A DNA stretch of 61,448 bases, from positions 10,773-72,220 of the forward strand of contig CAYIUC010000002.1 of assembly GCA_964366535.1 (NCBI GenBank), written 5' to 3'. The notes beneath the pieces were generated by a model. It had not been told where the DNA came from and made no database searches. It was given only the letters and a program-made list of their open reading frames with translations. The translations under genes were made by a program, and so were the position numbers. Positions within the stretch are counted from its first letter, which is position 1. Every line of letters begins with the position of its first letter. Positions 3,892 to 51,056 of this stretch are shown piece after piece. Origin of the DNA: an uncultured Candidatus Saccharibacteria bacterium. GTDB lineage: Bacteria; Patescibacteriota; Minisyncoccia; Phycocordibacterales; UBA10002.

Positions 3892-4410
3892 TTAGCTATC
3901 TATTAAGCGTTGAGTAATAAAGGTCTGGATGTCAAAACGGGACTCAAGCTTTTGCCCCGCGCGCATAATTCCGCCCACAAGCATCAAAGCATTTGGTTGT
4001 TTATCATCGCCCACTGCCTCGCCTTGAAGCAAGAAACAAAATCGACTAACGGATACTTCCGGCGCTGTCACGCCGACCGCGCTTCCGCTTCCGACACGGC
4101 GTACAATTTGCGTGCCTTGTAAGAAATATTCGGTTGATACTCCTGCCTGCGAAGTAAATTTTATGCCGTCTGTATACCCGCTCGCGCAATTGCCATTAAA
4201 AAAAGAGGCGGTCGAATACGCCGAGCCGGTGCGAAGATTGCGCGCCACGCTCTCCAGCGCAAAGTTGATATTGTTTACGACCGACTTAAACGCCTGCGCC
4301 TTACGGTTTGCATCGGCTACAGCGAGGAGAGCTCCCGCAGCAACAAGCGCCACTACGGTAAACACCGCAACAGACATCACCATCTCAATAAGTGTAAAAC
4401 CTTTGTTCAT
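3892..4410 (-). CDS. type IV minor pilin (PilW/GspJ-like)
   Basis: Starts MNKGFTLIEMVMSVAVFTVV, a prepilin cleavage/methylation motif. Confidence 0.7.
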   Translation of the reverse strand: MNKGFTLIEMVMSVAVFTVVALVAAGALLAVADANRKAQAFKSVVNNINFALESVARNLRTGSAYSTASFFNGNCASGYTDGIKFTSQAGVSTEYFLQGTQIVRRVGSGSAVGVTAPEVSVSRFCFLLQGEAVGDDKQPNALMLVGGIMRAGQKLESRFDIQTFITQRLIDS

Positions 4411-5048: not shown

Positions 5049-5770
5049 ATCATATCAAACTGGAAAAACCACGCGAGGAATGCGCCGATCGCGAGAAAAG
5101 GCCCGAACGGAAGTTCGGTTTTAAGCGAAAACGAGTATCGATTCATGATACGGCTCACTATGATTAGTAAAACACCGACGAATGCACCGAGCCAAAATGC
5201 TACAAGAAGCCCAGATAAGCCAAGCGAAAGCCCTAGAAACCAACCCAAACCGAGCTCTAGTTTTGCATCCCCGAACCCCATCCACTTGCCGCCGGAAAAA
5301 TACCAAAACGCCGCAAGCGGGAGTGCTAAGAGCGGTCCGGCAATAAAATGCTCGGGGTATGCGGCGAGCGCTACGAGCGCGAGCGTATATACCCCGCCGT
5401 TTGGAATAATCTTTGTGCGAAAGTCATATACAGAAAGAGCGAGCGCGATGCTCCAGAAAATCGCGGCGATAAGCGCGGGGGCATATTCAAGCGCCGCTAC
5501 ATACTTTGCCGCAATCGCGACAAACATCGCTCCGGCAATAAGCTCTACGAGCGGGTATTGGAACGAAATAGGAGCGCGGCAGGTGTCGCACCTGCCGCGC
5601 AAAAAGACAAAACTTAAAACAGGAACGAGCTCAAACCATCGCAAATGGCGGCGGCACGCCATACATGCCGACGGCGTTACTATTGACCGCCCCGTATCAT
5701 AACGGAACGACCACGCATTAGCAAAGCTCCCTATAGAAAGCCCGAGAAGAAATGCTACGAAGAGGAGCAT
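5036..5770 (-). CDS. pilD: prepilin peptidase / N-methyltransferase (A24 family)
   Basis: 244 aa, polytopic. Has the N-terminal Cys cluster CMACRRHL...CDTCRAPI and a GFGDAKL motif. Confidence 0.9.
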   Translation of the reverse strand: MLLFVAFLLGLSIGSFANAWSFRYDTGRSIVTPSACMACRRHLRWFELVPVLSFVFLRGRCDTCRAPISFQYPLVELIAGAMFVAIAAKYVAALEYAPALIAAIFWSIALALSVYDFRTKIIPNGGVYTLALVALAAYPEHFIAGPLLALPLAAFWYFSGGKWMGFGDAKLELGLGWFLGLSLGLSGLLVAFWLGAFVGVLLIIVSRIMNRYSFSLKTELPFGPFLAIGAFLAWFFQFDMMWLL

Positions 5771-8135: not shown

Positions 8136-8163
8136 AAACGGCTAAATGCGTGTTTAGCCGTTT
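8136..8163. terminator. hairpin AAACGGCTAAA-tgcgtg-TTTAGCCGTTT directly after the pilT stop; repeated at 33469-33496
   Basis: 11-bp stem flanked by A-run/T-run, so possibly bidirectional. A second, about 90% identical copy lies in the decayed DUF559 unit. Confidence 0.5.
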
Positions 8164-9266: not shown

Positions 9267-11546
9267 CTACTCACGCACACCAAATAATTGAGAAAAAAGA
9301 AAGTGCAACCTAGAGTAAAATAAAGAAGCGAGTTGCATGGGTGCCTGTACGCCTGCGGAAGGAGTTACAGTAACGGTTACTGAATCTGATGCTCGCCCTG
9401 CACCACCATCTTCGACACAGGTTACCGTATAGGTTTTTGAAGTTTGCGCTATAACACGGATACCACCAGAAGCGTCTCCAGAAACATCTCCGGTACACTG
9501 TTCCACCTTGCCTGTTGTGGTATATGTAAGCCCAATTATGGTACCGGCAGTCACCGTTACAGGTCCGTCAGTCGGTCCGTTACCGATATTTACCTTCAAG
9601 TCCACCAAAATGCTTTTTGGCGGTTGCGACTGCATAACCGTCACCTTAAACTCTTTTACCGCCTCAAGACCGCTTTCCAAATTCACCACCTTATACCCAA
9701 TAGGATACACACCAGAAACCGTATCCGTAGGAACTGAAAAATTAATGAATCTACCGTCTCCATCTCCAGGATTGACAGTAACTTCTTTGGCGACATCCCA
9801 AACGGAAAAAGGGGAATTGTCGTCTAGCATGGTGTAGCTCCACAGGTTAGGAATTATCGGAATGATTCTAAAACGAGACGGCCCGCATATTGAGTAATCA
9901 GTATTAGAGAAACCCATACTCATCACACCAGATTCGCCTTCGTATAACGACGCTTTATCTGGAAATACGAAATTGGGACTGATGAAATGTTTGGTAATCG
10001 CTGGAACATTTCGCACACATGAAGGCATTTTAAGCACAACATCGAAAGTAATACTGTTGGATTCTTGATCGGCGATTGGACCAATTGTAATACCACGCGA
10101 CTCGTCAAGAAAGACTCGCTTTGACCCATTTATTGAAAGAGCCGCATCTTTTACATCTTCATCCCAAGACATTTCTGACGGGTTTGCATCAACGAGATAC
10201 GGCGCAAAAGCGCCACTCGGATCTTTTCGTACCACCGTGATAAAAAGACCAGAGGAAGTGTTGCTTGCCGCCTTAAGATTCACATCAAAACCAGCGCCGT
10301 TCCGATATTCCGCATAAATATACTCTCCGGTTGCAGATCCTGGTACTGCAATTTTTGCGACATGTGCGCCCCCTGGTGTCTCGAAAGAATTAAGTGTGTA
10401 GCGTCCGCTCTGCGTGATAGACACAACATCGTTTTGTGTCAGCCAACCGAGCGATTCTTTCAATACTGAACTAAAATGCAGGCTATATTTCCCGGCACCC
10501 ATAACATCAAAATAATTTTGGTACTCTCGTAGCACACATTCGCCAGATACTTGTTGCATGCCGCAATCAAGCCCATTTGAATGATTCACCCCGAGCGCAT
10601 GTCCAAGTTCATGGCTAATGCCGTAGTCGTTCCCTGTCCATGAAAACGGTTGCGGGAAATGGCCTGCTGGGTGCACATCAGGAGATATAGAAACAATGGC
10701 GTCTGCAAAATTGAAGACGCGCCCATTGATGGAGTGCTGGCTAGATCCGATTGCTGCGCAATCACCGACGGAAAGGTTGGCGAGAACCAATACGATTGAG
10801 TACGACGCTAAATCAATAGCATTGCTTGATACAGCACTTGCTATATCTGCGTCAGTAACAGAACCGCATGTTGCATTTAGCGGTCCATCTCGTTGAAGTG
10901 TGGTCCAAGGAAGCGTTTTGCCAGAAAGCCGAAAACGACCATATGACTGTTCCTCAAAAAATTTCTGAACCTGGCCTTCAAATACCAGTGCGTGTAATTC
11001 CTCGCGTGTATATGGTCGCTCACCTGAAGTAAGAAAGTCCACAGGAATAACCAAAATGGCTGTGGCAACACCGTCCGTGAATGCACCTGCTTGTTTTGAC
11101 GGTGTTGATTTGCGTACTATCGGTGTTATTGCGGAGGCAGGCGGAACAATTGGCTGGACAACTGACGGCTTGCCCGACACATTCACGACGACAGCATCAT
11201 CATCGCGATTGCCTTCTTTGTCTATGCATGCGGCTTTAATTACAACAGAGCGGCTGATACGACCAGAAACCGTGCCGCTTGTCTTAATGTCGTTTTTGCT
11301 CCAGTTCCCTTTGCATCGCGCCGCCCCTTCGGAAAGCCACGAAACAACGATGCGGTCTCCTGAATTAACTGTAATCGGTCCATCTTCGCCGTTTACCTTA
11401 AGGTCTATAGAAACGCCATCAAAGATATCTTCTGACTCAAGAAATGCATCGGTGCCTTGCGCCACAAGCACACCCACACTAACCAAAAACACCAAAACAA
11501 ATGTAAGTACAAAAAAGAATGGGGTACGACAGCGAGTGTATGTCAT
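9267..11546 (-). CDS. secreted metzincin-like zinc metalloprotease flanked by duplicated two-Cys Ig-like domains
   Basis: 759 aa with an N-terminal signal/TM. Has HELGHALGVNH (HExxHxxGxxH) and a downstream DVMG. N- and C-terminal DLKVNG.DGP.TV domains resemble each other. Confidence 0.6.
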   Translation of the reverse strand: MTYTRCRTPFFFVLTFVLVFLVSVGVLVAQGTDAFLESEDIFDGVSIDLKVNGEDGPITVNSGDRIVVSWLSEGAARCKGNWSKNDIKTSGTVSGRISRSVVIKAACIDKEGNRDDDAVVVNVSGKPSVVQPIVPPASAITPIVRKSTPSKQAGAFTDGVATAILVIPVDFLTSGERPYTREELHALVFEGQVQKFFEEQSYGRFRLSGKTLPWTTLQRDGPLNATCGSVTDADIASAVSSNAIDLASYSIVLVLANLSVGDCAAIGSSQHSINGRVFNFADAIVSISPDVHPAGHFPQPFSWTGNDYGISHELGHALGVNHSNGLDCGMQQVSGECVLREYQNYFDVMGAGKYSLHFSSVLKESLGWLTQNDVVSITQSGRYTLNSFETPGGAHVAKIAVPGSATGEYIYAEYRNGAGFDVNLKAASNTSSGLFITVVRKDPSGAFAPYLVDANPSEMSWDEDVKDAALSINGSKRVFLDESRGITIGPIADQESNSITFDVVLKMPSCVRNVPAITKHFISPNFVFPDKASLYEGESGVMSMGFSNTDYSICGPSRFRIIPIIPNLWSYTMLDDNSPFSVWDVAKEVTVNPGDGDGRFINFSVPTDTVSGVYPIGYKVVNLESGLEAVKEFKVTVMQSQPPKSILVDLKVNIGNGPTDGPVTVTAGTIIGLTYTTTGKVEQCTGDVSGDASGGIRVIAQTSKTYTVTCVEDGGAGRASDSVTVTVTPSAGVQAPMQLASLFYSRLHFLFSQLFGVRE

Positions 11547-12006: not shown

Positions 12007-12072
12007 ACACCCCCTCTTCCCTCGTCCGCATTAGGCGGACTCGGGCTTTCTCCCCCTTAGGATAAGGGCGAG
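12007..12072 (+). repeat. double-hairpin repeat arm (forward orientation)
   Basis: acaccccctcttccctcGTCCGCattaGGCGGACtcgggctttctCCCCCTTAggaTAAGGGcgag. Confidence 0.75.
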
Positions 12073-12101
12073 AATAAGAAAGAGAAGTACAATACAAAGA
12101 T

Positions 12102-12458
12102 ATGCAGGTGCATAACAAACAAGAACTATACACGCGTAGAAAAAAGCTTCGTACGGGCGCAACGCTACAAGAAGCAAAACTGTGGGAACGCTTACGAAGA
12201 AAACAGTTGGGCTACAGATTCCGCAGGCAACATAGTGTCGGGTGGTACATTCTTGATTTTTATTGTCCAGAAAAGAAACTTGTCGTGGAGATTGACGGGG
12301 CGCCACACAAAGCAAGCAAGGAGTATGACGCGGTGCGCACGAACTACCTAAACCTACGCGGTATTCAGATACTGCGATTTTGGGATGATGAAGTGAGTAA
12401 CCATATTGAAAAAGTGGTATCAAAAATTAAAAATACTTTATGTCTTACCTGCCCTTAA
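12102..12458 (+). CDS. DUF559 (Vsr-like endonuclease fold) domain protein
   Basis: 118 aa. LRTGATLQEAKLWERLRRKQLGYRFRRQHSVGWYILDFYCPEKKLVVEIDGAPH...ILRFWDDEV. The stop codon lies inside the right arm. Confidence 0.85.
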   Translation: MQVHNKQELYTRRKKLRTGATLQEAKLWERLRRKQLGYRFRRQHSVGWYILDFYCPEKKLVVEIDGAPHKASKEYDAVRTNYLNLRGIQILRFWDDEVSNHIEKVVSKIKNTLCLTCP

Positions 12459-12500
12459 CCTAAGGGGAGGTGTCCGCCTGAGGCGGACGGAGGGGTGGTT
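12447..12500 (-). repeat. double-hairpin repeat arm (reverse orientation)
   Basis: acctgCCCTTAacctAAGGGgaggtGTCCGCCtgaGGCGGACggaggggtggtt. Confidence 0.75.
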
Positions 12501-25406: not shown

Positions 25407-25478
25407 ACGCCCGTAGCTCAATGGCAGAGCGTTCCGCTTATATCGGAATGGTTGGGGGTTCGAGTCCCTCCGGGCGTA
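25407..25478 (+). tRNA. tRNA-Ile with anticodon UAU (reads AUA)
   Basis: Cloverleaf folds by hand: acceptor ACGCCCG/CGGGCGT, D stem GCTC/GAGC, anticodon stem TTCCG/CGGAA with loop cTTATat, T arm GGGGGttcgagtCCCTC. Confidence 0.8.
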
Positions 25479-26356: not shown

Positions 26357-26398
26357 AGCCCCCCGCCAATCGGCAAGGGTGATGTTCAAGGGGTGGAT
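26357..26398 (+). repeat. partial/degenerate copy of the double-hairpin repeat
   Basis: Shares the 14-mer CCCCGCCAATCGGC with the copy at 37783-37850. The remainder has diverged. Confidence 0.35.
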
Positions 26399-28660: not shown

Positions 28661-28716
28661 GACCCCTCTGCCTCGCTTACGCTTCGGCATCTCCCCTCTC
28701 AAAGAGGGGCGAAGGG
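28661..28716 (+). repeat. double-hairpin repeat arm (forward)
   Basis: gacccctctgcctcGCttacGCttcggcatCTCCCCTCTcaaAGAGGGGcGAaggg. Confidence 0.7.
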
Positions 28717-29067
28717 AACTTGCCTCTGCAAAGTTTGCATTATAACTGCAAGTACTTCTTCTAAATGCTTTTCGATTTCGTTGTCCCAGAATCTAAGAAC
28801 CGTTACGCCGCGTTCGCCCAAATAATCCGTTCGCACCTTATCATATTCTCTCTGCCGAGAATGATGCGAACCGTCAATTTCTATGGCGAGTTTCTTCGCA
28901 AAACAATAAAAATCTACAATGTACCAACCAATACTTTCTTGTCGACGAAATTTGAACCCAAGTTGATTTTTCCGTAGTCGCGCCCACAGTTTTATTTCTT
29001 GTGGCGTTGCGTCTTTCCGCAATTGTTGCCGACGCGCCTTCAACTCTTTTTTGTTATGCGTCGGCAT
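28699..29067 (-). CDS. DUF559 (Vsr-like endonuclease fold) domain protein, paralog 2
   Basis: MPTHNKKELKARRQQLRKDATPQEIKLWARLRKNQLGFKFRRQESIGWYIVDFYC...IEIDGSHH...VLRFWDNEI. About 58% identical to copy 1 by hand count. The track ORF extends into the arm (29169). Confidence 0.85.
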   Translation of the reverse strand: MPTHNKKELKARRQQLRKDATPQEIKLWARLRKNQLGFKFRRQESIGWYIVDFYCFAKKLAIEIDGSHHSRQREYDKVRTDYLGERGVTVLRFWDNEIEKHLEEVLAVIMQTLQRQVPFAPL

Positions 29068-29087
29068 AGTATCTATTGTACCTCTTC

Positions 29088-29148
29088 CTCCTCTCCCCCT
29101 TTTTGAAAGGGGGAGTACCCGAGCGAAAGCGAGGGGGTAGGGGTTAGC
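29088..29148 (-). repeat. double-hairpin repeat arm (reverse)
   Basis: ctcctCTCCCCCTTTttgAAAGGGGGAGtacCCGAGCGaaaGCGAGGGggtaggggttagc. Confidence 0.75.
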
Positions 29149-33091: not shown

Positions 33092-33157
33092 GACACCCCT
33101 CCCGCTTCGCCCCGCCAACCGGCGGGGCTTGTCCCTCCCCTTATGTTAAGGGCAGGG
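33092..33157 (+). repeat. double-hairpin repeat arm (forward)
   Basis: gacacccctcccgcttcGCCCCGCCaaccGGCGGGGCttgtCCCTCCCCTTatgttAAGGGcAGGG. Confidence 0.75.
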
Positions 33158-33159
33158 AA

Positions 33160-33465
33160 AAGAAAAAAGCGCACTCACAGAGTGCGCTCCGATAAGATGA
33201 TAGAGTGGTAATCTTTCGCGTCACCTACACCGTTTTTAGGGGTTTATGAGGTCGATTACACCCACCGATGGCAGTCGAGTCTACTGATTGGCCGCCGTCG
33301 ACATTGCCATTTGATCACATCTATTCTAGGGATTTTGATTGCTTATAAGATTTCTACAATCATTACCCCACGCTCTATTGACAGCATAGCAAACCATGTC
33401 CTAAAAGTCAAGCGTTGGTGCAACTTCATTTTGTTGATTGTCAGAAAACCCTTGTTTTGCAACAT
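33160..33465 (-). pseudogene. decayed DUF559 gene
   Basis: Minus-strand frame reads MLQNKGFLTINKMKLHQRLTFRTWFAMLSIERGVMIVEIL-stop, then AIKIPRIDV. Compare intact IKLW..QLGFKFRRQESIGWYIVDFYC and AKKLAIEIDG. DNA shares tctacaat..tacc with copy 2. Confidence 0.5.
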
Positions 33466-33506
33466 ATTAAACGGCTAAACGCGCGTTTAGCCGTTTTTGA
33501 TTACCG

Positions 33507-33580
33507 CCTGCCCTTTTCCAAAGGGGAGGTGGCGAGCCCCGCCACGCCGTAGGCGGGGCGGGGCGAGACGGAGGGGTTGT
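33507..33580 (-). repeat. double-hairpin repeat arm (reverse)
   Basis: cctgCCCTTttccAAAGGGgaggtggcgaGCCCCGCCacgccgtaGGCGGGGCggggcgagacggaggggttgtt. Confidence 0.75.
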
Positions 33581-33592
33581 TCCCGACTTGTA

Positions 33593-33661
33593 CTAACCCC
33601 CTCCCCCTCGTCCCGCTTACAGCGGGACTCGGGTACTCCCCCTTTCAAAAAGGGGGAGAGG
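33593..33661 (+). repeat. solo double-hairpin repeat (forward), back-to-back with the arm at 33507-33580
   Basis: ctaaccccctccccctcGTCCCGCttacaGCGGGACtcgggtaCTCCCCCTTTcaaaAAGGGGGAGagg. Closest to the arm at 29088-29148. Confidence 0.7.
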
Positions 33662-33671
33662 AAAAGTGTTT

Positions 33672-37782: not shown

Positions 37783-37850
37783 AACCACCCCTCCGTCTCG
37801 CCCCGCCAATCGGCGGGGCTCGCCACCTCCCCTTAGGTAAAGGGCAGGGT
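37783..37850 (+). repeat. solo double-hairpin repeat (forward)
   Basis: aaccacccctccgtctcGCCCCGCCaatcGGCGGGGCtcgccaCCTCCCCTTaggtaAAGGGcAGGgtg. No inverted partner within 1 kb. Confidence 0.75.
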
Positions 37851-40793: not shown

Positions 40794-40805
40794 CCGCCTT
40801 CCCGA

Positions 40806-40841
40806 CTTATGTTTAAGCTACGATCGTATCTTAATAATAAA
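40806..40841. repeat. 36-bp AT-rich palindrome, copy 3 (more diverged)
   Basis: cttatgtttaagctacgatcgtatcttaataataaa, in the convergent spacer between recG and the RelE-like toxin. Confidence 0.75.
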
Positions 40842-47915: not shown

Positions 47916-50031
47916 CTTGCTCGTACATAAGTGTATACGCGTCTGCGCGAGAAAATAAACCGCGAGGTTCTACAAATACATAGTCGGCGATTGGTATAAC
48001 TTCTCCTGCACGAATCCGCATAGCATACTCACTAACGCGAAGAGTTAACTCTTCTTCAGGAATTATAGGTGGGGGCATTTTTGAAAAGAAACCATCGAAT
48101 GTGCGCGGGCGGTAAAACTCTTTAAATAGGTACAACGCATCGCGAGACACCCACACACGAAATTCGTCTTCAGATAAACCCCAAAGCGCCCCAAATGCAT
48201 ATGCGAGTTCCCATAGTTCTTCTTGAGATGCGAGCGTACTGAACCCATCCGTAACAAATGAACGATTCTCGGTAAACAATCTAAGCGCATAGTTGGTATG
48301 CGCCCGTTCGCTCGCCACCATTGACCCTGATGGCGTATGTTCGTTGAGCCACTGGTACGCATTTGCTTCGGGTATCGGTATGCCCCGTGTATGCGCTTCG
48401 TCACGGCTTAATCTGTACTGCCCGTAAAATGCGTGGGCGAAAAACAAAACAAGAAATGCGACGGCGTATATGCGAACCGTCCTTGCGGAAACACGCGACG
48501 CAAGATATCGCTTCCACAACCATACAACTACAACTCCGAATGCCAACATCACTGGCAAAAATGTCTCGCGATACCAATGGTCGGGCTGTGGCGAAAAGCC
48601 GAGTACTAATTGCACATTAACGACAACAAAATAAGCTGCGAGAAGAGAGATTAAAAACACCGCGGCAGATGAAAGGTGCTTTCTGGAAGCGTAGATAAGC
48701 GCGCCTATCCATACGAGATGCCGCGCGTATGTCTTCCACACCGACCCGAAGCGGAAATGCCGCCCGATTTCTACGCCCGCAATTCGAAACATAAGGTCTT
48801 CGTAGTGCGGCAAGCGGCGAAGCGCCGCAAAGTTGAACCAATACGGAATTGAGATAATGCCGCCAATACCAAAGATGCCCGCGCCTGACTTTACGGCGCG
48901 CCAATTGCGACGAAAAACAAACCATAAAATAGCGAGGACTAATGCAACCGTGAGATATGCCCAATCATAAAGATAAGTATAAAAGAGGATCCCAAAAAAT
49001 ACACCGCCGAAAACCACATCTCTCCTGACACCTGTGCGTAGAGCACGGAATATGAAAAGAAGCGCAATCGTATAAAAAATAAAGGTTATTTTCGGATATT
49101 CAAAACTTGAAAAATAAAGCAATGCGTTTTGCGGAAGAATAGAAACAGAAGGAGAAAGGAGCGCCGCAAGCGGCGATACCATAAAAACAGAAGCGAGCAG
49201 AAGCGCCGGCTTTGCGCGCCGAAATACCTCGCGCAAAAGCGCATACACCGCAAGGAAAATAAGCGGCGGGATTAAGAAATCGGAGACGATATAAGCGCGC
49301 TCCATGCTCAAAAGCGCCTTGCCAAGACCGCCCATAATCAAAGGATTCAATACCGGCAAGAGAGACGGCAACTCTAATTCGCCGCGCGCGAAGAAGGCAT
49401 TCGCGCGCGGCCCGTAGTAGCCGCCGGCGTCTGGATCGGACGCATAGGTAACCGGCGTGTATACTAACCCACCCGGCATAAAACTAGGCATAAGTAAGTG
49501 GTGTATGCCGTATAGCAGAGAAACGGCTAGCGCTACAACGAGCACGGCACGGTGAGATACGAAAAATGAACGCATGAGTACTGCCCAATGCGCAAGCGGC
49601 GATCGCGGATGGAAAATAACGAAGCGATATACGAAGAAGCTACCTACCGCGATCGTCGCGGCGGCAATGATCTGCGCGAAGAAGTACCAAAGCCCCGCCC
49701 ATTCCACGAGCGCGTACATAAAAGCGGCGTTGATTCCGATATTGGTGATTTGTAGTCCTAAATAAAAAGCGCTTTGTGTAGCAACGGCTTTTCCAGACGC
49801 GCTGCGATCTCCAAAGGTATAAAACTTCTGGAGTACAAAACTCACGACCACAGCCACGCAAAACGCCGCAGTGGCGGACACAAGATAGTGCCACCCGACA
49901 TACTCTGTCAGCGCAAACAGAATGCCAAGGTCAATGGCGGTAGAGGTACCGCCAGCAATAAGGTAACGGATGCCTATTGGAAGCCCGAATAAGAAATTGC
50001 GCATGCGAAGCATTATAACAGAGTGCGCCAT
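47887..50031 (-). CDS. GtrA-like domain fused to a large polytopic membrane domain (possible GT-C-type transferase)
   Basis: N-terminal about 140 aa reads IRYLIAGGTSTAIDLGILFAL...VVSFVLQKFYTF...FFVYRFVIF (GtrA family). More than 12 further TM segments and a soluble C-terminus follow. Confidence 0.55.
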   Translation of the reverse strand: MAHSVIMLRMRNFLFGLPIGIRYLIAGGTSTAIDLGILFALTEYVGWHYLVSATAAFCVAVVVSFVLQKFYTFGDRSASGKAVATQSAFYLGLQITNIGINAAFMYALVEWAGLWYFFAQIIAAATIAVGSFFVYRFVIFHPRSPLAHWAVLMRSFFVSHRAVLVVALAVSLLYGIHHLLMPSFMPGGLVYTPVTYASDPDAGGYYGPRANAFFARGELELPSLLPVLNPLIMGGLGKALLSMERAYIVSDFLIPPLIFLAVYALLREVFRRAKPALLLASVFMVSPLAALLSPSVSILPQNALLYFSSFEYPKITFIFYTIALLFIFRALRTGVRRDVVFGGVFFGILFYTYLYDWAYLTVALVLAILWFVFRRNWRAVKSGAGIFGIGGIISIPYWFNFAALRRLPHYEDLMFRIAGVEIGRHFRFGSVWKTYARHLVWIGALIYASRKHLSSAAVFLISLLAAYFVVVNVQLVLGFSPQPDHWYRETFLPVMLAFGVVVVWLWKRYLASRVSARTVRIYAVAFLVLFFAHAFYGQYRLSRDEAHTRGIPIPEANAYQWLNEHTPSGSMVASERAHTNYALRLFTENRSFVTDGFSTLASQEELWELAYAFGALWGLSEDEFRVWVSRDALYLFKEFYRPRTFDGFFSKMPPPIIPEEELTLRVSEYAMRIRAGEVIPIADYVFVEPRGLFSRADAYTLMYEQDGFRIYEKP

Positions 50032-51056
50032 TCCGCCGCCTGTTTCTGTATATGCGCTTGCGGCGATGGCAGCGCAAAGAAACTTGCGCGCGCCGCTTCT
50101 CCTAGCCGCACTCTTAACGGCTCATCAACAATGAACCGTTCCATTGCTGCAGCGAGCTCGCCTTCGCCGCCAATGGGAATCACGATTCCATTTTCTCCGT
50201 TTTGTATAAACTCTCCCGCACAGCCCACATCGGTCATTATAATCGGCAGTCCATATGCAGCCGCCTCCACAACCGCAACCCCCCACCCTTCGCTGTCGGA
50301 GGTGAGAAGAAACGCATCGGCCTCTTCGTAGAACAGCGCCAAATCTTTCTGCTGCCCCTCAAACACCACCCTATTCTCTGATTTTAAACTTTTGACCTGC
50401 GACTTTAGCCACCATTCCAGTATTCCACTACCAACAATCCGCAATCTCGCTTGTGGAAATTCCCGCACAATACGCGCGAGCGCGCGAATTTGCATTGCGA
50501 TATTCTTAACAGGCACCAGCCGCCCAACCGTTAGAAAAGTAAATGCGTTCCCTTCTGCCTCTCCACCTTTTCTAAGGGGGAGTACCCCGAGCGGAGCGAG
50601 GGGGGTGGAGGTGGTTTGGGTATATACAGGCAGTACATACACTTTCTCAGCCGATGCACCAAAATCAACGGCTAACTGCATTAGCCGTTGGCTTACTACC
50701 CTCACCTTGTCTGCACGGCGCAATACAAAACCGGCAATCATCTTTCGTATGCAGTGCAACTTTTCAAACCCGTGCACCTGGACCTCCAATGACGCATGGA
50801 ATCTACGCGCGACGAGATACGCGAGGAGCGCAAGGTACGCCGTGTCTTGCACGGTTACAATATCAAACTTATCTTCTATAAACGCGCGTCGCGCGCTCTT
50901 CCACAAACGCAAGAACTGCGATTGTCTACTCCCCGCGCCATCAGGTACAAATACGACAATCTCCACTGCCTCCTTCCGAAGCGCCGCGAGCCGCTCTGCG
51001 GCGAGCGTCCCCTCGCGCAGTATTTCCCCGTCCAAACTAAACATGCATATTCTCAT
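50013..51056 (-). CDS. GT4-family glycosyltransferase carrying an in-frame copy of the double-hairpin repeat
   Basis: FLTVGRLVPVKN...LTSDSEGWGVAVVEAAAYGLPII. The linker TTSTPLAPLGVLPLRKGGEAEG is encoded by the repeat at 50558-50616. Confidence 0.8.
   Translation of the reverse strand: MRICMFSLDGEILREGTLAAERLAALRKEAVEIVVFVPDGAGSRQSQFLRLWKSARRAFIEDKFDIVTVQDTAYLALLAYLVARRFHASLEVQVHGFEKLHCIRKMIAGFVLRRADKVRVVSQRLMQLAVDFGASAEKVYVLPVYTQTTSTPLAPLGVLPLRKGGEAEGNAFTFLTVGRLVPVKNIAMQIRALARIVREFPQARLRIVGSGILEWWLKSQVKSLKSENRVVFEGQQKDLALFYEEADAFLLTSDSEGWGVAVVEAAAYGLPIIMTDVGCAGEFIQNGENGIVIPIGGEGELAAAMERFIVDEPLRVRLGEAARASFFALPSPQAHIQKQAAEWRTLL
50558..50616 (-). repeat. double-hairpin repeat copy (reverse orientation) inside a CDS
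   Basis: gcctCTCCaCCTTTtctAAGGgGGAGtacCCCGAGCGgaGCGAGGGGggtggaggtgg, compared with 29088-29148. Confidence 0.7.

Follow-up and report, generated by a model that had tools for sequence, protein, structure and literature searches.

The gap between pilB and a response-regulator gene in the 61,448-nucleotide stretch of DNA analysed here (the window) holds a short open reading frame whose 118-aa product matches the Pfam family DUF559 (PF04480, E=6e-35). It lies between two mutually inverted arms of 60-70 nt, and the whole unit, cassette 1, consists of the following features.

12007..12075, minus strand: left arm A1, a triplex motif with blocks TCGCCCTT / AAGGGGGA / AGGGGGTG
12088..12093, plus strand: TACAAT, a -10-like box 8 nt 5' of the ATG, found in the sequence and conserved in homologues
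12102..12458, plus strand: DUF559 nuclease gene (YcjD-like, Vsr-fold PD-(D/E)xK), 118 aa, its final codons and stop within arm A2
12440..12500, plus strand: right arm A2, a triplex motif with blocks CTGCCCTT / AAGGGGAG / GAGGGGTG

A first-pass annotation of the same DNA had described a DUF559 gene between inverted arms, and this arrangement stands out from controls: local alignment of one flank against the other scores 43, compared with 27 for the 99th percentile of 4021 control positions. The gene was correctly read as AT-richer than the backbone (43% GC, against 59-73% in the arms and 50.6% in the window), and its stop codon (TAA, 12456-12458) does fall inside the right arm, within hairpin 2 of A2. 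Loop 2 is a GC hairpin in A1 (GTCCGC..GCGGAC) and the hairpin GTCCGCC..GGCGGAC in A2; the third block of A1 points away from the gene ('head-out'), and the cassette pairs a beta arm with an alpha arm. The two hairpins that had been read in each arm are recovered, together with a free G-rich tail, when the arms are folded as DNA under Watson-Crick pairing only (z-scores of -3.0 to -5.8). The left outer end had been given as CCACCCCTCC and actually reads ACACCCCCTC. The TACAAT box is kept as GTACAAT in copy 2 (below) and in two homologues (L005 and L007), and this conservation suggests that the cassette carries its own promoter and produces a near-leaderless mRNA; a consensus promoter scan did not call the box at 12088-12093. 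The closest homologues of copy 1 adjoin groES in other genomes.

The two DUF559 proteins of the window score 119.8 and 122 bits against the Pfam model (cut-off 20.6), with DUF559 and MTES_1575 as their only Pfam domains, and belong to a family of 24,384 clusters at 50% identity. Since they reach 91 and 97 bits against the YcjD equivalog PRK09767 of NCBIfam, below its cut-off of 218 bits, they are relatives of YcjD and not orthologues; domain and size are shared with E. coli YcjD and with the N. gonorrhoeae NGO0050-type protein (PDB 3HRL), the nearest solved structure (E=9e-22). The first-pass annotation had made its proposal depend on retention of the catalytic residues, and D52, E63, D65, and H69 (a D...ExD...H motif) are invariant in 27 aligned sequences and align with 3HRL. 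Judged by these conserved positions, the enzyme looks intact. Our literature search found no published biochemistry for DUF559 members. A defence-system reading was rejected, PADLOC having returned weak nuclease-domain matches only.

Arms of the triplex-motif class

Repeats of the BoxC/PIT/triplex-motif (TM) kind have been on record since the 1990s, and their literature includes work by Bachellier et al. and by Hoyne and Maher in 2000. In a triplex motif, a pyrimidine-rich block is followed by its purine complement and then by a mirror image of that purine stretch (G·G and A/T·A triads). We scanned for three such blocks of 8 nt with at most one mismatch, anchored on the purine block. The matches in the 61-kb window are exactly nine arms, of which eight are intergenic, and 20 shuffles of the window give none. 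The mirror rule gives 141 exact matches, against 33 for a direct-repeat rule.

The arms are members of the known BoxC/PIT/TM intrastrand-triplex class (PMC4666352), not a new repeat. Their architecture agrees with the TMECO consensus and with the BoxC history (PMC4666352): both have the three-block plan (C-rich, complement, and mirror G-rich with T opposite A), are GC-rich, multicopy, and mainly intergenic, are found singly or as inverted pairs made from two subtypes, and vary by locus between relatives. The blocks themselves differ, being of the CCCCTT/AAGGGG type here and CCCTCNCCC in TMECO, and so do the loops. The class has been defined by short loops (N3-6 and N3 in TMECO, 1-6 nt in the ITxF search); in the window arms loop 1 is 2-5 nt and loop 2 is 17-42 nt with a variable extra hairpin, where TMECO has 3 nt, and we therefore treat them as a long-loop TM variant. 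Many arms from other phyla have short loops. The loop-2 inserts form hairpins of unrelated sequence, differing even between both arms of a single cassette, with a mean MFE of -8.3 kcal/mol compared with -3.4 for shuffled sequence (156 loops, p=3e-24); the hairpin structure is under selection. Rfam searches of the window in gathering and E-value modes returned only a tmRNA and two tRNAs, and searches of the arms gave no family and no meaningful sub-threshold matches. Hundreds of genomes contain repeats of this class, which in E. coli are markers of unstable loci, and the main study of them found neither a mobility function nearby nor a mechanism (PMC4666352); in vivo triplex formation was not found by Holder et al. 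(2015, PMC4666352).

The remaining arms and the units that they form are listed below.

28661..28715, minus strand: arm of cassette 2 (motif scan, folding)
28699..29067, minus strand: second DUF559 gene, 122 aa, ATG at 29067, 57% identical to copy 1, between secY and adk
29080-29075, minus strand: TACAAT box of cassette 2, beyond A4
29090..29148, plus strand: arm A4 of cassette 2, on the 5' side of the gene, CCCCTTTT / AAAGGGGG / GGGGGTAG
33092..33158, minus strand: arm A5 (alpha type), left arm of a gene-less unit between rpsN (S14) and rplE (L5)
33159..33504: 347-nt AT-rich interior of the gene-less unit, with a terminator-like hairpin at each end
33505..33581, plus strand: arm A6 (alpha type), forming a convergent doublet with A7 at a spacing of 15 nt
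33593..33662, minus strand: arm A7, of the same type as A4 and identical to it over 35 nt
37783..37848, minus strand: solo arm A8 (alpha type), intergenic, adjoining a ZIP transporter gene
50558..50625, plus strand: arm A9, TCCACCTT / AAGGGGGA / AGGGGGGT, in frame within the GT4 glycosyltransferase ORF 50013-51056 (minus strand)

The cassette architecture had been reported to recur twice in the window, and this holds in full at 28661-29148, where the hand-counted identity of about 58% between the two intact proteins is close to the aligned value; at 33092-33581 it holds for the arms only. Because tblastn (E up to 10), blastn (word size 7), and a six-frame profile search all failed to find a DUF559 remnant in its interior, we do not file this third unit as a decayed DUF559 cassette, even with both arms present. 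Among the scattered copies noticed earlier, those at 33593, 37783, and 50558 are arms, and the 'fragments' at 26357, 28627, and 58590 fail the formal motif. The arm at 50558-50625 is not intergenic and lies in frame inside a glycosyltransferase ORF. The glycosyltransferases of relatives that we compared with the A9-bearing one are not orthologues.

Association with DUF559 genes and occupancy of insertion sites

The first-pass annotation had proposed a statistical test of whether arms co-occur with DUF559, and the arms are enriched beside these genes both in the window and elsewhere. Four of the nine window arms fall within the 2.5% of sequence next to DUF559 (p=4e-5). We extended the comparison to 80 other loci from at least six phyla (CPR, Bacteroidota, Desulfuromonadales, Betaproteobacteria, Ignavibacteria, and Nitrospirota): an associated gene or mobility function is unreported in the BoxC/PIT/TM literature, whereas here a TM lies within 200 nt of the DUF559 gene at 79 of the 80 loci, a figure for the subfamily and not for DUF559 as a whole because the loci were picked by similarity to the window protein, and TMs occur on both sides at 60. 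Near the gene there are 3.46 TMs per kb, compared with 0.136 per kb elsewhere, a 25-fold enrichment (80 loci, p=3e-166). A generic inverted-repeat score exceeds the 99th percentile of controls in about 58 of the 80. Distant DUF559 genes on IMG/VR contigs have TMs at 25 of 40 loci and none at the other 15, and cyanobacterial, Neisseria, and E. coli (ycjD) loci carry the same motif or remnants of it. Triplex-like motifs do occur at low frequency in any genome, and scrambled genomes yield 28% as many if short stems are allowed (PMC4666352), so that GC-rich intergenic palindromes beside a short AT-rich gene could in principle be an artefact of chance or composition. The 1.22 Mb of loci contain 363 matches and, after shuffling, one; together with the window shuffles and the position controls, these numbers refute that reading, to which we give practically no credence.

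The nearest flanking pair is inverted at 52 of 60 loci (p=5e-9), the spacing of the flanking motifs is tight (mode 350-450 nt), and head-in and head-out arrangements both occur, in different lineages. No other recurrent cargo was found between inverted TMs; only DUF559 shows tight recurrent spacing, and between the remaining inverted pairs lie ordinary host genes or the ends of genes. Inverted arms could also be recombination sites that flip the gene between them, and DUF559 is enriched among predicted targets of programmed inversion (odds ratio 14; PMC9881135). However, the adjacent genes include no recombinase, the short arms resemble each other at only ~75-90%, a single orientation is seen in four independent assemblies of this population, and the promoter-like box lies within the unit, so that flipping would not switch expression; we consider programmed inversion very improbable.

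Counted from the repeats, only 7 of 76 TMs adjoin a DUF559 gene. Of 5426 complete E. coli genomes, 4605 contain a TMECO 36-mer and only 3378 contain ycjD, and TMs therefore persist without the gene. Related metagenome contigs contain recurrent gene-less doublets, beta (minus), about 20 nt, and alpha (plus), with the arm types and orientation of cassette 1, sharp ends (ACACCCCCTC...GGAGGGGTG), and differing flanks. Such doublets might have come first. If DUF559 were a homing-type selfish gene that cuts pre-existing empty TM doublets and is copied in by double-strand-break repair, it would always be found between two inverted arms. Doublets with cassette 1 arm types and orientation at several loci, the tight spacing of the flanking motifs, and the five inverted A+B TM pairs of E. 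coli (PMC4666352) would all fit, and Vsr-like homing endonucleases such as I-Bth0305I are known (PMC3239194, PMC2677866). Yet the doublet spacer is not recognisably split over the inner ends of the cassette, head-in and head-out arrangements both occur, and most cassettes are single-copy and syntenic. Moreover, a solo TM is likelier to match a gene-flanking TM from its own genome than one from another genome (48% versus 15%, p=1e-5), a co-variation more in keeping with a partnership of nuclease and repeat than with passive targets. Homing is thus, in our judgement, an unlikely account.

Three conserved operon junctions that are swollen in the window are empty in relatives. The first-pass annotation had suggested searching for empty pilB-regulator junctions, and this gap, 585 bp here, is 12-32 bp in relatives whose PilB is 85-91% identical; likewise, the secY-adk gap is 617 bp here and 21-41 bp in relatives, and the L5-S14 gap is 723 bp here and 100 bp in one relative. 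The only conspecific assembly (L096) carries identical insertions, and in relatives at 85-92% protein identity the intergenic DNA is unalignable. No target-site duplication is visible at three cassettes and six doublets, and no filled site could be matched to an empty one with alignable flanks. Most cassettes are single-copy, and many are syntenic across related species, with flanks that align and cassette identity of 88-98%; the gene-carrying unit is therefore often vertically inherited and not highly mobile. On arm enrichment, empty junctions, and conserved nuclease-motif residues, the three points on which the first-pass annotation could have been refuted, the results favour it; the mobile cassette that it proposed has to be qualified by this synteny.

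Vertical inheritance of a mostly single-copy unit would also suit a cellular role, in which the arms are cis-regulatory or insulating structures (autoregulatory sites, or elements of mRNA stability or termination) that limit a potentially toxic nuclease. DUF559 would then be a housekeeping enzyme, for example one processing triplex- or hairpin-forming DNA, and the solo repeats would be independent BoxC-type elements or substrates. The end of the ORF within one arm, the promoter-like box just inside the other, and the persistence of TMs in E. coli genomes without ycjD are compatible with this role. It is harder to square with arms that can face either way with respect to the gene, an arrangement that does not suggest a fixed regulatory geometry, with the sharp ends and differing flanks of the gene-less doublets, or with the absence of the whole unit from the three junctions in close relatives, its nearest homologues being at unrelated loci. 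For PIT elements, no promoter or terminator activity was observed in E. coli (work summarised in PMC4666352). A consensus scan found no terminator or promoter in the cassette, and we set that candidate function of the arms aside. Overall, we regard the regulatory explanation as rather unlikely.

A proposed repeat-nuclease partnership

The reading that we favour, at a probability of roughly 55%, is that the locus is a selfish cassette of about 490 bp, a repeat-nuclease system of the REP/RAYT kind built on a PD-(D/E)xK enzyme. The nuclease would recognise its flanking repeat, probably extruded or single-stranded and folded, and nick beside it. A hydrolytic nuclease is unable to rejoin DNA, so arms, doublets, and now and then the unit with the gene would be copied by host recombination or repair to further intergenic positions, and the same process would cause local deletions and rearrangements. 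The repeats are in fact dispersed through the genome as singlets and gene-less doublets. The cassette anatomy, the link between this nuclease family and inverted TMs across phyla, the gene-less doublets, and the empty junctions in relatives are established here; the action of the nuclease on the arms and this route of movement we infer.

Several known systems share parts of this arrangement. The parallel with RAYT genes and REP sequences drawn in the first-pass annotation is borne out by the inverted flanking repeats, the dispersed copies, and the REPIN-like gene-less doublets, and fails at the enzyme. As in REPtrons, a small nuclease-type gene lies between inverted structured repeats, the repeat is dispersed as singlets, doublets, and arrays, its subtype co-varies with the gene's own flanks, and the gene is frequently inherited vertically as a single copy. 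However, the REPtron enzyme is an HUH/Y1 transposase (PF01797), whereas a DUF559 nuclease is hydrolytic, with no means of making a covalent intermediate or of rejoining strands, and the repeat here has the three-block triplex plan where REP is a simple palindrome carrying GTAG at its 5' end; the system is only an analogue. Insertion sequences and MITEs also have inverted terminal repeats, an ORF that runs into one repeat with a promoter-like box inside the other, and short gene-less derivatives of the two ends, but a Pfam search found no DDE, serine, or tyrosine transposase here, and the arms take two opposite orientations relative to the gene, by lineage. With the I-Bth0305I-like (EDxHD) homing endonucleases the cassettes share a Vsr-type fold, selfishness, and presence/absence polymorphism at conserved sites; no intron, intein, or pair of split inteins houses the DUF559 gene, whose flanks are its own repeats and not a split host gene. 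In E. coli, ycjD ends within a TM-like sequence, with a full TMECO 150 nt downstream; the 5' arm has been lost there, and the gene, fixed and in single copy, occupies the fabI-sapF locus in alternation with the eefRABCD operon (PMC12817139).

The recurrence of the pairing across many phyla suggests the DUF559 nuclease as the missing partner of the BoxC/triplex repeats. In this broader and more tentative proposal, to which we give slightly less than even odds, DUF559/YcjD nucleases would be the cognate enzymes of BoxC/PIT/triplex-motif repeats across CPR, Bacteroidota, Proteobacteria (E. coli and Neisseria), and Cyanobacteria, and recognition of the folded repeat would drive both its spread and the genome instability around it. 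The repeat class itself is already known, and the pairing with DUF559 appears to be the new part: a search of the literature on DUF559, YcjD, BoxC, and intrastrand triplexes, which did not cover the Hoyne and Maher papers, found no DUF559-repeat link, and the link appears undescribed in the searchable literature. Such a link would account for the swollen pilB-regulator, secY-adk, and L5-S14 junctions in a small CPR genome. The physical association of DUF559 genes with triplex motifs also yields a testable hypothesis for two orphans in a model organism, namely whether YcjD binds or nicks TMECO, and, if true, it would place a second, mechanistically different partnership of repeat and nuclease beside REP/RAYT.

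DUF559 cassettes in the window and the repeat that bounds them

A first-pass annotation had proposed three REPtron-like units, DUF559 nuclease genes boxed by inverted double-hairpin arms, at 12007-12500, 28661-29148 and 33092-33580, and solo arms near 33593, 37783 and 50558. The corresponding features of the window, which belongs to a CPR genome (Parcubacteria) recovered from Hainich groundwater, are:

12007-12075 and 12440-12500: mutually inverted arms of cassette 1 (sequence comparison)
12102-12458, + strand: DUF559 gene of cassette 1, 118 aa (Pfam DUF559, E=6e-35)
28661-28715 and 29090-29148: inverted arms of cassette 2
29067 to 28699, - strand: DUF559 gene of cassette 2, product 57% identical to the cassette 1 protein
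33092-33581: third unit, two inverted arms around a 347-nt interior
33593-33662, 37783-37848 and 50558-50625: solo arms

The first two units are thus borne out, cassette 1 also by a flank inverted-repeat score (the upstream flank aligned locally with the downstream flank in reverse complement) of 43, against a 99th percentile of 27 at 4021 control positions in other loci, and all three solo arms are confirmed. The third unit has its inverted arms, but tblastn, blastn and six-frame profile searches gave no DUF559 trace in the interior. This AT-rich insert (33159-33504), in the L5-S14 spacer, is not DUF559-derived; it has a terminator-like hairpin at each end, one of which recurs at 8136-8163, and an RNA-fold z-score of about -4 on both strands, and is perhaps a gene for a small RNA, or cargo of another kind.

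In single-stranded DNA folding, every arm forms a pair of hairpins and leaves a G-rich tail unpaired after them (z-scores -3.0 to -5.8); the stop codon of cassette 1 falls within hairpin 2 of the right arm, and its ORF has 43% GC, compared to 59-73% in the arms and 50.6% in the window. In the G-rich orientation, all arms share one layout: block 1 (for example, CTGCCCTT), a loop of 2-5 nt, block 2, which is the purine complement of block 1 (AAGGGGAG), a second loop of 17-42 nt with a GC-rich hairpin inside, and block 3 (GAGGGGTG), a mirror image of block 2 in which A is faced by T or A. At the level of sequence, this layout is what defines an intrastrand triplex motif (TM). The architecture is that of the E. 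coli consensus, TMECO (CCCTCNCCC-N3-6-GGGNGAGGG-N3-GGGNGAGGG), named successively BoxC, PIT element, and TM (Holder et al., 2015, PMC4666352) and, as BoxC, a listed E. coli repeat family (PMC2267715); the sole departure of the window arms is the long second loop with its additional hairpin. TMs are known from more than 260 genomes, make inverted pairs of two subtypes, occupy loci that vary unusually between strains, and form stable triplexes in vitro, with no triplex detected in vivo (Holder et al., PMC4666352). A TM scanner (8-nt blocks, at most one mismatch each in block 1 and block 3, second loop of at most 50 nt) finds exactly nine matches in the window, which are the nine arms, and none in 20 block shuffles of it; no Rfam family matches the arms.

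The solo arm at 50558-50625 lies in frame within an unbroken GT4 glycosyltransferase ORF (50013-51056, - strand), at the linker joining its two Pfam domains, and aminoacyl-tRNA synthetase ORF fragments in a comparison locus with 27 motifs in 20 kb (L027) likewise read through motifs; both cases resemble the in-frame palindromic elements of Rickettsia. The window also holds three copies (3-45, 663-705, and 40805-40840) of a 35-43 nt palindrome (CTTATGATTAAGATACGATCGTA..TTAATCATAAG). The copies at 3-45 and 663-705 are inverted on either side of a 197-aa ORF (55-648, + strand) with a PaaX/Cas2-like motif, and may mark a further small gene with its own repeat on both sides, or else serve as a pair of operators. 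A tRNA-Ile gene at 25407-25478 has the anticodon TAT, which is unusual in bacteria, where AUA is normally read by a lysidine-modified CAT tRNA.

DUF559 genes and triplex motifs across bacteria

Invariant columns in an alignment of 27 relatives include D52, E63, D65, H69, R79, and R92. Among solved structures the nearest is 3HRL, an N. gonorrhoeae 'endonuclease-like protein' (E=9e-22), and the related N. gonorrhoeae gene has a degenerate TMECO-like motif upstream. Both window proteins fall near but below the NCBIfam YcjD equivalog cut-off, PADLOC gives weak nuclease-domain matches only, and the family comprises 24,384 clusters at 50% identity with E<=1e-3. Both window copies and two homologues share a conserved GTACAAT box 8-9 nt ahead of the ATG, which suggests that the cassette may carry its own promoter. 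Some database proteins have two or three tandem DUF559 domains (P0361, P0362), and some DUF559 proteins of 116-118 aa are labelled 'leucyl-tRNA synthetase' by their sources (P0046, P0050); these may be cassettes in or beside aminoacyl-tRNA synthetase genes, or annotation errors.

The enrichment of arms beside DUF559 that the first-pass annotation had proposed as a test was found across a set of 80 loci from species-representative genomes encoding relatives of the window protein (42-75% identity), spanning CPR lineages, Bacteroidota, Geobacter/Desulfuromonadales, Betaproteobacteria, Ignavibacteria, and Nitrospirota. The generic flank score exceeded the control 99th percentile in about 58 of the 80, a formal TM lay within 200 nt of the ORF in 79, and TMs flanked the ORF on both sides in 60. 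TM density was 3.46 per kb within 200 nt of the gene versus 0.136 per kb elsewhere in the same loci (binomial p=3e-166), and the shuffled 1.22 Mb of these loci held a single TM. The nearest left and right TMs were inverted in 52 of 60 loci (p=5e-9), with the third block gene-proximal in 37 of these 52 pairs and distal, as in the window, in 15, and the TM-to-TM distance across the gene was narrowly distributed (mode 350-450 nt). Exact third blocks near DUF559 genes followed the mirror rule in 141 cases versus 33 for a direct-repeat rule. Arms across loci share a core (CCCCTCCT, loop, AGGAGGGG, spacer, GGGGTGGT); the second-loop inserts of related loci (n=156) are nearly always hairpins, unrelated in sequence, with a mean MFE of -8.3 kcal/mol versus -3.4 in shuffles (p=3e-24), and the two inserts of a cassette often differ by compensatory changes.

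Among 40 more distant DUF559 genes (33-48% identity, IMG/VR contigs), 25 had TMs, 19 of them on both sides, and the 15 that had none count against a current, obligatory partnership. On a Pseudanabaena plasmid, inverted CCCCCC-AGAATT-GGGGGG-CTA-GGGGGG arms, missed by the 8-mer scanner, lie either side of a DUF559 gene. In E. coli K-12, the 3' end of ycjD (locus L094, 1351205-1351760) falls within ACCCTCTCCCTGAAAGAGCGAGGGG, a partial triplex motif, and a full TMECO lies 150 nt downstream. The TMECO 36-mer occurs in 4605 of 5426 complete E. coli genomes and ycjD in 3378, which likewise counts against a current, obligatory partnership. The fabI-sapF site holds ycjD or, in other phylogroups, the eefRABCD operon, which the authors of that study read as lost independently at least two times (PMC12817139); the alternation fits an unstable, repeat-marked locus and is no proof of mechanism.

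Dispersed repeats and variable junctions

Away from the anchoring gene, 144 of 159 TMs in the 80 loci had no other DUF559 copy adjacent. Such solo TMs are closer to the TMs that flank the gene in the same genome than to those of other genomes, with per-locus match rates (within 2 of 16 block positions) of 48% versus 15% (Wilcoxon p=1e-5). One metagenome scan with an alpha-type arm, that is, a search starting from the repeat, gave 76 TMs on 30 contigs (218 kb), of which seven were adjacent to DUF559, at four genes, about 6-fold above expectation (p=2e-4). Recurrent doublets of about 110 bp on the metagenome contigs, beta(-), about 20 nt, alpha(+), have the arm types and relative orientation of cassette 1 without the gene; their ends are sharp at ACACCCCCTC and GGAGGGGTG, with unlike flanks between loci. 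These doublets stand to the cassette as REPINs and BIMEs stand to RAYT genes, or MITEs to their parent elements. A homing gene that invades pre-existing doublets is one of two main rival readings, and one we consider improbable. Convergent doublets, as at A6/A7 (the third unit's right arm and the first solo arm), and tandem alpha arrays also occur; on three contigs (L121 at 5196-5484, L124, and L131), three alpha arms in tandem with an 83-nt period precede a beta arm, a BIME-like organisation.

Several cassettes remain syntenic across related species (88-98% nucleotide identity), which means that vertical inheritance of the gene-carrying unit is frequent. The arms could then be structures that regulate or insulate a cellular nuclease, the other main rival and a reading we think unlikely; three conserved junctions differ in occupancy between the window and its relatives, including the empty pilB-regulator junctions for which the first-pass annotation had suggested looking.

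Intergenic gaps at three junctions
pilB - response regulator: window 585 bp; relatives 12-32 bp (PilB 85-91% identity)
secY - adk: window 617 bp; relatives 21-41 bp (SecY 85-89% identity)
L5 - S14: window 723 bp; relative 100 bp (SecY 92% identity)

At L5-S14, homology to the relative restarts at the S14 leader. The two nearest homologues of copy 1 (75% and 68% identity) adjoin groES, each in a different related genome; in one of these genomes the pilB-regulator junction is empty. The comparison, in which no filled/empty pair had alignable flanks, showed no target-site duplication. In the same pilus locus, a 759-aa ORF (9267-11546, - strand) with a weak metallopeptidase match separates the response regulator from pilT; because pilT directly follows the regulator in three relatives, this ORF is a second insertion there. 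In a relative, Parcubacteria Gr01-1014_17 (L098, 5730-6401), pilT and pilC are separated by a gene weakly matching Y1_Tnp (IS200/RAYT-type), so the same operon junctions admit other mobile genes.

A proposed partnership of nuclease and repeat

We favor, at a probability of roughly 0.55, a reading in which the DUF559 nuclease recognises its own flanking repeat and nicks beside it, with spread left to the host. The form read would be the folded single strand, as in REP/RAYT and IS200/IS605 systems, since the hairpin is conserved in structure and variable in sequence and is joined by a mirror third block. PD-(D/E)xK enzymes hydrolyse DNA and have no capacity to rejoin it, so spread would have to use host recombination or repair, for which other repeat copies could serve as homology. 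Nicking followed by host repair would also explain why deletions and rearrangements are reported near TMs in E. coli.

No paper linking DUF559 or ycjD to TMs was found in full-text searches, and an earlier remark by Hoyne & Maher is possible; DUF559 does appear, uncommented, in an inversion survey as one of the proteins enriched at inverted-repeat targets predicted there (PMC9881135). The TM repeat class and the DUF559 family are each already known, each without a known function, and together they would form a repeat-plus-nuclease partnership of the same type as REP/RAYT, with another enzyme and another repeat.
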